Virus record (IMG/VR): IMGVR_UViG_2874962485_000008
Length of the DNA: 35,626 nt
Origin: a virus
Taxonomy: Duplodnaviria; Heunggongvirae; Uroviricota; Caudoviricetes
Strand: one strand, 5' to 3'
Position 1 is the first letter of the stretch. Every line of letters starts with the position of its first letter. This document shows, one piece after another, positions 27,001 to 28,266 of this stretch. Position numbers: made by a program.

Positions 27001-28266
27001 GCCTGCGGCAATCAGCGCCAGAACAGCAGCCGACAGGCCGTATTTGATTTTTGCGCTCATGGATATTTATCAGGATTTATCGGCAACAAATAACGAGCCA
27101 ACTTATATACGCCTTTTAAGATAAGTCAGCCCCGGCTGGATCCAGTCATCAGGCTCTTTCTTAAAGGGGGAGTATTGAAATCACGAAGAAGAGCCTCCCG
27201 CACCGCAGCATCCATGTCTGCACCACTGGCAAGTGCTTCAATCTCTGCCGCCACCTGCAAATACCCCATGCAACGGCCAATGCGTTTCATAACTCTGGTG
27301 TTTTCGTCTTTCAGGCATCTGATAGCGAGATTAATAATTTTCAGGCAGTGATGATGCGATGCCCGGACAGGTTTTCCGTTCTCATAAACGACGAACTCAC
27401 CCTCTTCACAGGAAACCCTGAAAGGCCGATGGGGTTCCTGGTCTTTATCCGGTGCAGACGCAATAAAATCACTTTTATGCTCTTCCTCTCCGGCACTGTT
27501 AACCGTAATGACGTACTCAGGCCGCAGGTAAGCCGCCTCTTTTTCTGACAATGCGGCCGGTAAAAACTTTTCCTGCAAAAACTTCATAAAAGTCTCGTGA
27601 GCGACTTTGTGGCAGTAATCGTAAATCGCCGCATAATGCTCATCGCGGCGTTTGTTTTCATCTTCAGAACTCACCAACGCCGACAATTTTTTATTAAGCT
27701 CAGTGATTTCATTTTCCAGGTGATTGAATCGCTGATTCATTTCTTCATGCTTCATTATTTACTCTCCCCGTGCAGCCTTACGCTTGTCTTCTCTTATTTT
27801 GAAATACAGATTCGTCAGATAAGTCAGAAGCCCCAGAAGCAGACTTCCCAGCACACCAATCGCAGCCCACTGTGATGGCCTGACCTGATCCAACCACTGC
27901 AAAAACCAGTAGCCGGCACTGCCGGCGGAGGTGCCGTAGGCAATGCCCGTTGAAATTTTGTCCATGGATTTCATAGCCTCACCTCCGCAAATAACGGATG
28001 GCGTAGTTTTACACTGAGAAATGAAAGGGATTTGAAAAGAAAAAAACGCAAAAGCGGGCGAAACGATATATACAGTAAGGAAAGCACTCTATCCAACAAA
28101 CCACCCACAGTTAATCGGAATAAAAGCAGAGTGCTTATGAATGATCGCACGCCCGAAGGTTAGTATTTCTGCACAGCAATTTTGCAAAAAAAGGCGATCA
28201 TTCATAACTTAAACGTCTTTCAGTCACTCCGGGATTTCCCATCATCGCAGACTGAAAGACTCTGAC

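Follow-up and report, generated by a model that had tools for sequence, protein, structure and literature searches.

What is the gene that separates the pinholin gene S from the endolysin gene R in an S21-type lysis cassette, and can the copy considered here still act? The question is posed by the IMG/VR virus record IMGVR_UViG_2874962485_000008 (Caudoviricetes), a stretch of 35,626 nucleotides that was analysed as a whole and is referred to as the window. Between S and R, it carries an open reading frame (ORF) for 209 amino acids, here called the slot ORF and its product the slot protein, which the original prediction, made from the sequence alone, had described as an unassigned gene wedged into the cassette. 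Our answer, to which we assign a probability of roughly 0.55, is that the slot ORF represents a genuine accessory late gene of the modular YdfR family (PHROG 1085) that is dispensable for lysis, that the family may have a cytoplasmic adaptor role, which we propose with low confidence, and that the allele in the window is most probably inactive or partly active at best. The features on which this answer rests are the following.

27126 to 27755, minus strand: the slot ORF, 209 amino acids, a stand-alone version of the C-terminal module of long YdfR proteins (PHROG 1085), in which a helical hairpin at the N-terminus is followed by an acidic segment of variable sequence and by a conserved core.
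27764 to 27767, minus strand: the Shine-Dalgarno sequence GGAG of the slot ORF, read directly within the 3' end of S, 8 nucleotides 5' of the ATG.
27759 to 27974, minus strand: S, an S21-type class II holin (pinholin) of 71 amino acids with the MKSM dual-start motif (PF04971, E = 5.5e-35).
26563 to 27060, minus strand: R, an RrrQ-type endolysin resembling signal-anchor-release (SAR) endolysins (PF00959 lysozyme), cut to 165 amino acids; the intact form has 177 and would end at about 26527.

The slot ORF lies on the minus strand where it had been placed, and it is a genuine coding gene, because it has more than 100 homologues and because the ratio of non-synonymous to synonymous substitution rates (dN/dS) is 0.25-0.42 in all ten pairs of a codon-level comparison between the window gene and four intact homologues (L004, L093, L094 and L007). 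In the central part of the gene (aligned codons 110-155), the same comparison found synonymous sites to be saturated, and the two sequence types of this segment are old alleles swapped by recombination, not products of recent positive selection. The stop codon of S (TAA, 27761-27759) is followed by a spacer of three nucleotides (ATA) and then by the start codon of the slot ORF (ATG, 27755-27753), which bears out the tight coupling to S and the ribosome-binding site that had been noted. Since a gene for the antiterminator Q and four tRNA genes lie upstream, the slot ORF is also part of the late operon, as had been proposed, and since it starts only 3 nucleotides after the pinholin stop codon, its product would be made together with S from a Q-dependent late transcript. 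A promoter of its own was not found upstream of the slot ORF, where regional counts of such sites did not exceed those of shuffled sequence.

The properties of the slot protein are those of a predicted soluble, acidic cytoplasmic protein. It is acidic and hydrophilic, with an isoelectric point of about 6 and a highest 19-residue Kyte-Doolittle mean of 0.76, and it has no transmembrane segment, signal peptide or hydrophobic segment. The hallmarks of a holin, antiholin or spanin, i.e. a transmembrane or SAR segment or a lipoprotein signal, are therefore absent from the slot protein, and no PHROG of the lysis category was matched at E <= 1.

The earlier statement that the protein matches nothing does not hold at the level of families. 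Over its full length (residues 1-209), the slot protein aligns with positions 117-288 of the 296-position profile of PHROG 1085 (E = 1.2e-73, 249 bits), and its identity to the C-terminal part of a 333-residue 'YdfR family protein' (P0004) amounts to 82%, compared with 43% for a second homologue (P0090). The match is confined to this section of the profile because the long homologues carry the domain DUF1327 N-terminal to the homologous region; relative to the profile, the slot protein thus lacks the N-terminal DUF1327 part as well as the last residues. Many homologues comprise 268-333 amino acids, are named 'YdfR family' in RefSeq and consist of DUF1327, a linker and a stretch to which the slot protein is homologous in its entirety, and in P0004, P0073, P0082, P0090 and P0115 the Pfam domain PF07041 (DUF1327) covers residues 1-100. 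In the slot protein, hmmscan found no match to PF07041 at E <= 1. Scans of the slot protein against Pfam, NCBIfam and PADLOC gave no significant match (0 families of PADLOC-DB at E <= 1), and a sequence-profile search of the PDB returned nothing below E = 0.03; to that extent the hidden Markov model searches agreed with the original prediction in matching no well-characterised family. Judged from these profiles, the slot protein falls outside the Pfam YdfR/DUF1327 family, whose domain it lacks, and inside PHROG 1085, and it is the C-terminal module (about 200 residues) of long YdfR proteins, encoded alone. The protein is thus no orphan and does not represent a new kind of element; it is a catalogued hypothetical protein of a small, uncharacterised, lineage-restricted phage family, and its entries are of the type of WP_001300760.1 in RefSeq and 'bacteriophage protein [Shigella flexneri]' in UniRef.

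The gene ydfR of the Qin prophage had been cited as a precedent for the slot. As a positional precedent it stands: YdfR of Qin in Escherichia coli K-12 and the 'YdfR family' proteins of lambdoid and Shiga toxin (Stx) prophages share the slot between an S21-type holin and an RrrQ-type endolysin. The relationship goes beyond position, because the slot protein is homologous to the C-terminal extension of the YdfR family. Qin YdfR itself (103 amino acids) is the other half of the long proteins, DUF1327 encoded alone; it is devoid of the module found in the slot protein, whereas the slot protein is devoid of DUF1327. Further arrangements of the same parts exist: at locus L004 the module is followed by DUF1327 in a separate gene, phage PhiR12_2 encodes DUF1327 with the helical hairpin only, and in P0118 and P0153 the hairpin is joined to an unrelated C-terminus. 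A database search for DUF1327 fusion partners of an informative kind found none. Three proteins of 173-187 amino acids (P0194, P0219 and P0226) combine the holin domain PF04971 and DUF1327 in a single chain; they may be read-through or fusion calls of S and the slot gene, cases of real stop-codon loss, or assembly artefacts.

The family is small and limited to prophages of Escherichia, Shigella and Salmonella. A large-database search with the slot protein (E <= 0.001) returned 132 clusters, every one of them from Escherichia or Shigella, while an exhaustive profile search of 1.84 billion cluster representatives gave only 41 matches and a profile search of a collection of 5.8 billion sequences gave 178. 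When one genome per species was considered, the module was present only in S. flexneri, E. coli and one Escherichia sp. The most distant members, which come from Salmonella enterica and from unnamed assemblies and share about 30% identity, have a DUF1327-like N-terminus and a different middle; their C-terminal core is the same and still ends in the tail PPFK..P..W..PG..YLK.R. In an alignment of 43 diverse sequences, the residues L, G, R, L, Q and A within ...L..[IL]GR.MG.LQ.AAEIE... are invariant, as are P, K, W and P of the tail. The slot protein contains this core motif, with all of its invariant residues, as ...MKRIGRCMGYLQVAAEIE... In the tail consensus of the family, PPFKK.P..W.PG..YLK.R, the residues W, P and K are invariant and G, Y and L nearly so. 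Both with and without DUF1327, the family is under purifying selection.

Structure prediction supports the division into parts. For the slot protein, AlphaFold2 (AF2) with a shallow, Escherichia-only alignment yielded a mean predicted local distance difference test (pLDDT) score of 48.5; this model was unusable and was kept out of the fold search. For the intact P0004, with the distant members added to the alignment, AF2 predicted two confident domains, namely DUF1327 (residues 1-73, pLDDT 80-97) and the C-terminal core (residues 225-333, pLDDT 72-90), the latter built from three helices and three short strands and closed by a short terminal helix. The hairpin reached pLDDT 54-74, and the linkers, which are disordered in the model, stayed below 50. 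The full family architecture consists of DUF1327, helical hairpin, variable acidic segment, a core of about 100 residues and the conserved tail. No recognisable fold was assigned to the slot protein. Of the N-terminal coiled coil that had been predicted, the helicity was recovered, with helices at residues 3-27 and 33-64 of low to moderate pLDDT. The Cys and His residues that had been pointed out in the C-terminal half are likewise present, but they do not form a conserved metal-binding motif: only H136 is nearly invariant across the family, and C162 is replaced by Ser or Ala in distant members. A Cys/His metal (zinc) site was considered and rejected, since the ligand residues vary across the family and only one His is conserved. 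That the C-terminal tail might be an amphipathic membrane-targeting helix was also considered, and a comparison of hydrophobic moments did not set it apart from the frameshifted tail described below or from controls.

How regularly the slot is filled was determined at 80 IMG/VR loci (L008-L087) whose holin is at least 90% identical to S of the window. At 28 loci R overlaps the stop codon of S, at 47 a DUF1327-type gene lies between S and R, and at 5 the contig ends before R, which leaves 75 classified cassettes. All 28 direct cassettes encode an R21-type endolysin of 165 amino acids that is about 35% identical to R of the window, whereas all 47 occupied cassettes encode an RrrQ-type endolysin of 177 amino acids with 89-99% identity to it. 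The survey of S-R neighbourhoods that the original prediction had suggested thus turned against the picture of an inserted gene: the slot is filled in 47 of 75 cassettes, and the endolysin type rules which. That R normally follows S directly is correct for the R21-type endolysin (28/28) and incorrect for the RrrQ-type (47/47 occupied), so that the gene is not wedged in. The present analysis establishes slot occupancy as the rule with an RrrQ-type endolysin, and the direct succession of S and R as a feature of true phage-21 cassettes only. S is 93-94% identical in the direct and in the occupied group, which places the recombination between S/R cassettes at the 3' end of the S gene.

Another 80 IMG/VR loci were chosen because they contain the core module. 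In all of them the gene starts 4-5 nucleotides after S, and R comes next wherever the contig extends far enough; 53 of these genes are DUF1327 fusions and 25 are stand-alone versions like the slot ORF. In the distant members (three loci on Salmonella-type contigs, L088-L090), the gene lies between Q and S: it is preceded by Q, a HicA/HicB toxin-antitoxin pair and a DUF4406 gene, and an S21-type holin gene follows immediately downstream. An S21-type holin therefore adjoins every family member examined, i.e. 80/80 Escherichia loci and 3/3 distant loci. The endolysin is of the RrrQ-type at two of the three distant loci and of the R21-type at L088, and because of this exception we attribute the connection with the R type to linkage within a module that recombines and do not take it to prove that one depends functionally on the other. 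A DUF4406 gene is also found just after Rz in the E. coli relative L001.

The family gene is an accessory late gene that is dispensable for lysis as such, since the slot is empty in 28 of the 75 S21-type cassettes and many E. coli genomes hold only fragments of it. Among 5426 complete E. coli genomes, 1066 contain DNA resembling part of the ORF; this DNA covers at least 80% of the ORF in 79 genomes and is at least 95% identical in 7. Many E. coli genomes (H54-H68, e.g. ATCC 25922, NZ_CP032085.1 177449-177614) have only an unannotated remnant of about 165 nucleotides, which corresponds to nucleotides 466-630 of the ORF at about 84% identity and may be a relic of the 3' end of the gene that stayed beside R after deletions. 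The small PHROGs 26186 and 15975 were apparently built from such 3' fragments.

The allele in the window departs from this family in its last residues, where two features of the sequence are decisive.

27166 to 27170, minus strand: a run of five C with one base missing; homologues read ACN CCA CCC TTT AAG where the window reads ACT CCC CC- TTT AAG.
27103 to 27165, minus strand: the lost tail in its ancestral frame, still intact, FKKEPDDWIQPGLTYLKRRI, followed by the stop codon TAA (27105-27103) and identical to the tail of P0004.

Unlike in every other family member, residues 198-209, the last 12 of the slot protein (LRKSLMTGSSRG), are read out of frame. Through the deletion of a single nucleotide, the slot protein has lost W, P, G, Y and L at positions that hardly vary in the family, and with them the conserved tail. 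All 14 loci of the allele that were fetched share the deletion (E. coli FDAARGOS_944, S. flexneri SFBU1023, E. coli ECMA0423 and 11 IMG/VR contigs), and the exact slot protein is catalogued, under the UniRef name given above, on at least 1000 contigs. It differs in one residue from an E. coli copy, and a related E. coli copy is annotated as 'frameshifted'. Because the tail is lost and both R and Rz are dead, the allele in the window is most probably inactive.

These observations raise the alternative that the slot ORF no longer has a function and is a decaying remnant, frameshifted and lodged in a defective prophage with a late operon that is incapable of lysis. This explanation overlaps with our own reading, and we take it seriously while placing it a little below even odds. 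It would account for the deletion of the most conserved part of the protein, for the nonsense codon in R, the truncation of Rz and Nu1 by an IS3-family element and the group II intron in the replication region, and also for the E. coli copy annotated as 'frameshifted' and the unannotated 3' fragments that are widespread in E. coli. It fits less well with the state of the ORF, which is intact except for the tail, retains the N-terminal helices and most of the core, and is only one residue away from the E. coli copy; moreover, the reading frame of the allele has been preserved at each of the 14 loci as well as on at least 1000 Shigella contigs.

For the family as a whole, the reading that we prefer is an accessory late gene whose product, where it is encoded alone, would be translated along with S from the late mRNA that depends on Q and would remain soluble in the cytoplasm. 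Late in infection, the family might act as an oligomeric cytoplasmic adaptor, in which the conserved core and tail would bind a partner and, in the long forms, DUF1327 would bring this partner to RNase E or to RNA. The outcome would be an altered RNA fate or lysis-time physiology, but not lysis itself. These steps are proposed with low confidence, and for the allele in the window, with its tail lost and its cassette dead, activity would be partial at best and most probably absent. A dependence on RNase E would have parallels among phage proteins that target this enzyme, such as T4 Srd, phiKZ Dip and T7 gp0.7. No similarity was detected between these proteins and the slot protein, which is without DUF1327. 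In functional terms, the long YdfR forms may nevertheless belong with them, through the binding of RNase E by DUF1327 (PMC13232886).

The experimental basis of the adaptor idea comes from Qin YdfR, i.e. from DUF1327. Two-hybrid and co-purification experiments demonstrated that Qin YdfR binds the N-terminal catalytic half of RNase E through its first 72 residues, and the protein co-purifies with DNase-resistant nucleic acid (RNA) (PMC13232886). A literature search on ydfR, DUF1327, PHROG 1085 and WP_001300760 returned nothing functional beyond this paper. Several points weigh against our reading. In the same study, overproduction of YdfR altered few transcripts (PMC13232886), and the RNase E evidence concerns only DUF1327, the very domain that the slot protein lacks. 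Furthermore, stand-alone forms are abundant and under purifying selection, so that the core must act without DUF1327, which weakens the idea of an RNase E adaptor for them. Finally, the frameshifted allele is fixed in the 14 loci of its lineage and its out-of-frame tail is undecayed, which could mean that the allele is recent or that function has been retained.

The proximity to S invites a second explanation, in which the slot protein would be a dedicated lysis regulator that is co-translated with the pinholin and, from the cytoplasm, adjusts either the time at which the pinholin triggers or the way in which the RrrQ-type SAR endolysin is handled. Cytoplasmic holin modulators that are encoded beside the holin gene are represented by P1 LydB and T4 RIII. 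Like the slot protein, they are small, soluble and co-expressed with their neighbour, but no similarity in sequence or fold to the slot protein was detected, and the likeness is one of functional analogy only. The constant neighbourhood of an S21-type holin (80/80 Escherichia and 3/3 distant loci), the coupled start 3-5 nucleotides after the S stop codon and the perfect correspondence between occupancy and RrrQ-type endolysin (47/47 versus 0/28) would all suit such a regulator. The last of these is, however, expected from modular recombination at the S/R junction and is broken at L088 with its R21-type endolysin, and phage-21-type cassettes lyse without a slot gene. The slot protein also has no transmembrane segment or signal peptide and matched no lysis-annotated PHROG. 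A regulator would also suit the finding that a ydfR deletion mutant is among the hits of an envelope-permeability screen, where it appears in the supplementary tables only (PMC3879167); this phenotype of the Keio mutant could, as we infer, arise instead from polarity on rrrQ, the gene for the SAR endolysin downstream. Taken together, we regard a dedicated lysis regulator as unlikely. Similarly doubtful is the wider proposal that core and tail constitute an unrecognised fold that functions as a partner of pinholin/SAR-endolysin lysis or of RNase E-dependent decay at lysis, and that proteins with or without DUF1327 form a new accessory class of the lysis cassette.

Still less probable is that the slot, being permissive for recombination, has merely captured a moron unrelated to lysis, with a role in defence, anti-defence, superinfection exclusion or virulence. 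The locus is highly mosaic, as illustrated by P0118 and P0153, in which the hairpin is joined to other C-termini; the central segment occurs as allelic types that diverged long ago, to the point of saturated synonymous divergence; and the family is narrow and resides in prophages of the pathogen-rich genera Escherichia, Shigella and Salmonella. Nevertheless, PADLOC provided no match, no promoter-like site of its own was found upstream beyond the counts of shuffled sequence, and the tight coupling to S implies expression during lytic growth only, which is a misfit with a moron that is expressed in the lysogen.

The deletion has also created C CCT TTA (27160-27170, minus strand), a heptamer of the X XXY YYZ type, in the register for a -1 slip into the ancestral frame. 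As read in frame, the slot protein ends in ...TPPLRKSLMTGSSRG, while a -1 slip would give ...TPPFKKEPDDW. The 81 nucleotides 3' of the heptamer fold no better than shuffled sequence (z = 0.41), and the heptamer is probably a coincidence. A ribosomal bypass of the frameshift that yields some full-length protein with its tail is therefore highly improbable, for although heptamer and register are read directly and the out-of-frame tail is a perfect match to that of P0004, a stimulatory structure is not indicated downstream, a Shine-Dalgarno-like stimulator was not found at the proper upstream distance, a deletion in a C-run next to TTT makes the heptamer automatically, and intact homologues encode the tail in frame.

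Several consequences follow for the study of these phages. If the family took part in lysis, the pinholin/SAR-endolysin pathway, now described by S, R and Rz/Rz1 alone, would gain a cytoplasmic component; if it took part in the metabolism of late RNA, the interaction of YdfR with RNase E, reported recently, would acquire a purpose. Taken as a whole, the family makes a reasonable target for research on phage lysis or on RNase E. For annotation, hundreds of 'hypothetical protein' entries from E. coli, Shigella and Stx phages can be tied to the YdfR family, and the Shigella allele can be flagged as frameshifted. It is a poor representative of the family, and an intact homologue is better suited for experiments.

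The surroundings of the slot ORF suggest a prophage in decay and contain the following features.

26130 to 26530, minus strand: the spanin gene Rz with embedded Rz1; the 3' end is lost to an insertion sequence at about 26129.
About 24881 to about 26129, minus strand: an IS3-family insertion sequence (NF033516) with orfA at 25762-26064 (100 amino acids) and orfB at 24908-25726 (272 amino acids); the boundaries are approximate.
28267 to 28577, minus strand: a cluster of four tRNA genes (Gly-TCC, Thr-TGT, Arg-TCT and one with the anticodon CAT) in the interval between Q and S, the leader of the late operon.
28777 to 29193, minus strand: the late-gene antiterminator Q, 82-type (PF06530), the presumed driver of transcription through the tRNA genes, S, the slot ORF and R.
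1060 to 2823, plus strand: a gene for an IpaH-type type III effector with LRR_TTSS and NEL E3 ligase domains, located past the tail genes at the opposite end of the prophage.
32473 to 34086, minus strand: a group II intron with a reverse transcriptase/maturase ORF (32563-34086) and a match to Rfam Intron_gpII (32473-32559).

The lysis cassette is non-functional. In R, position 26565 is A in the window versus G in E. coli FDAARGOS_944, which converts Q166 into a stop codon, and Rz is cut by the IS3-family element. The same element removes the 5' part of the gene for the terminase small subunit Nu1, of which a residual ORF of 107 amino acids corresponds to positions 85-163 of the Nu1 profile only. 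From this damage, together with the IpaH-type gene and the group II intron, the window is identified as a decayed lambdoid prophage of Shigella flexneri, in which ipaH marks an ipaH-carrying remnant of Shigella or enteroinvasive E. coli (EIEC). In S. flexneri SFBU1023 (L005), about 1.29 kb of extra DNA is located at the junction of the insertion sequence. The group II intron lies in the replication region, where it adjoins DnaB-like and IstB/DnaA-like genes. The fourth tRNA (28501-28577, minus strand) was called Met (CAT) by ARAGORN, whereas RefSeq annotates tRNA-Ile in related prophages, implying a lysidine-modified CAT anticodon. The third tRNA is specific for Arg in the window and for Lys in strain TUM2826.
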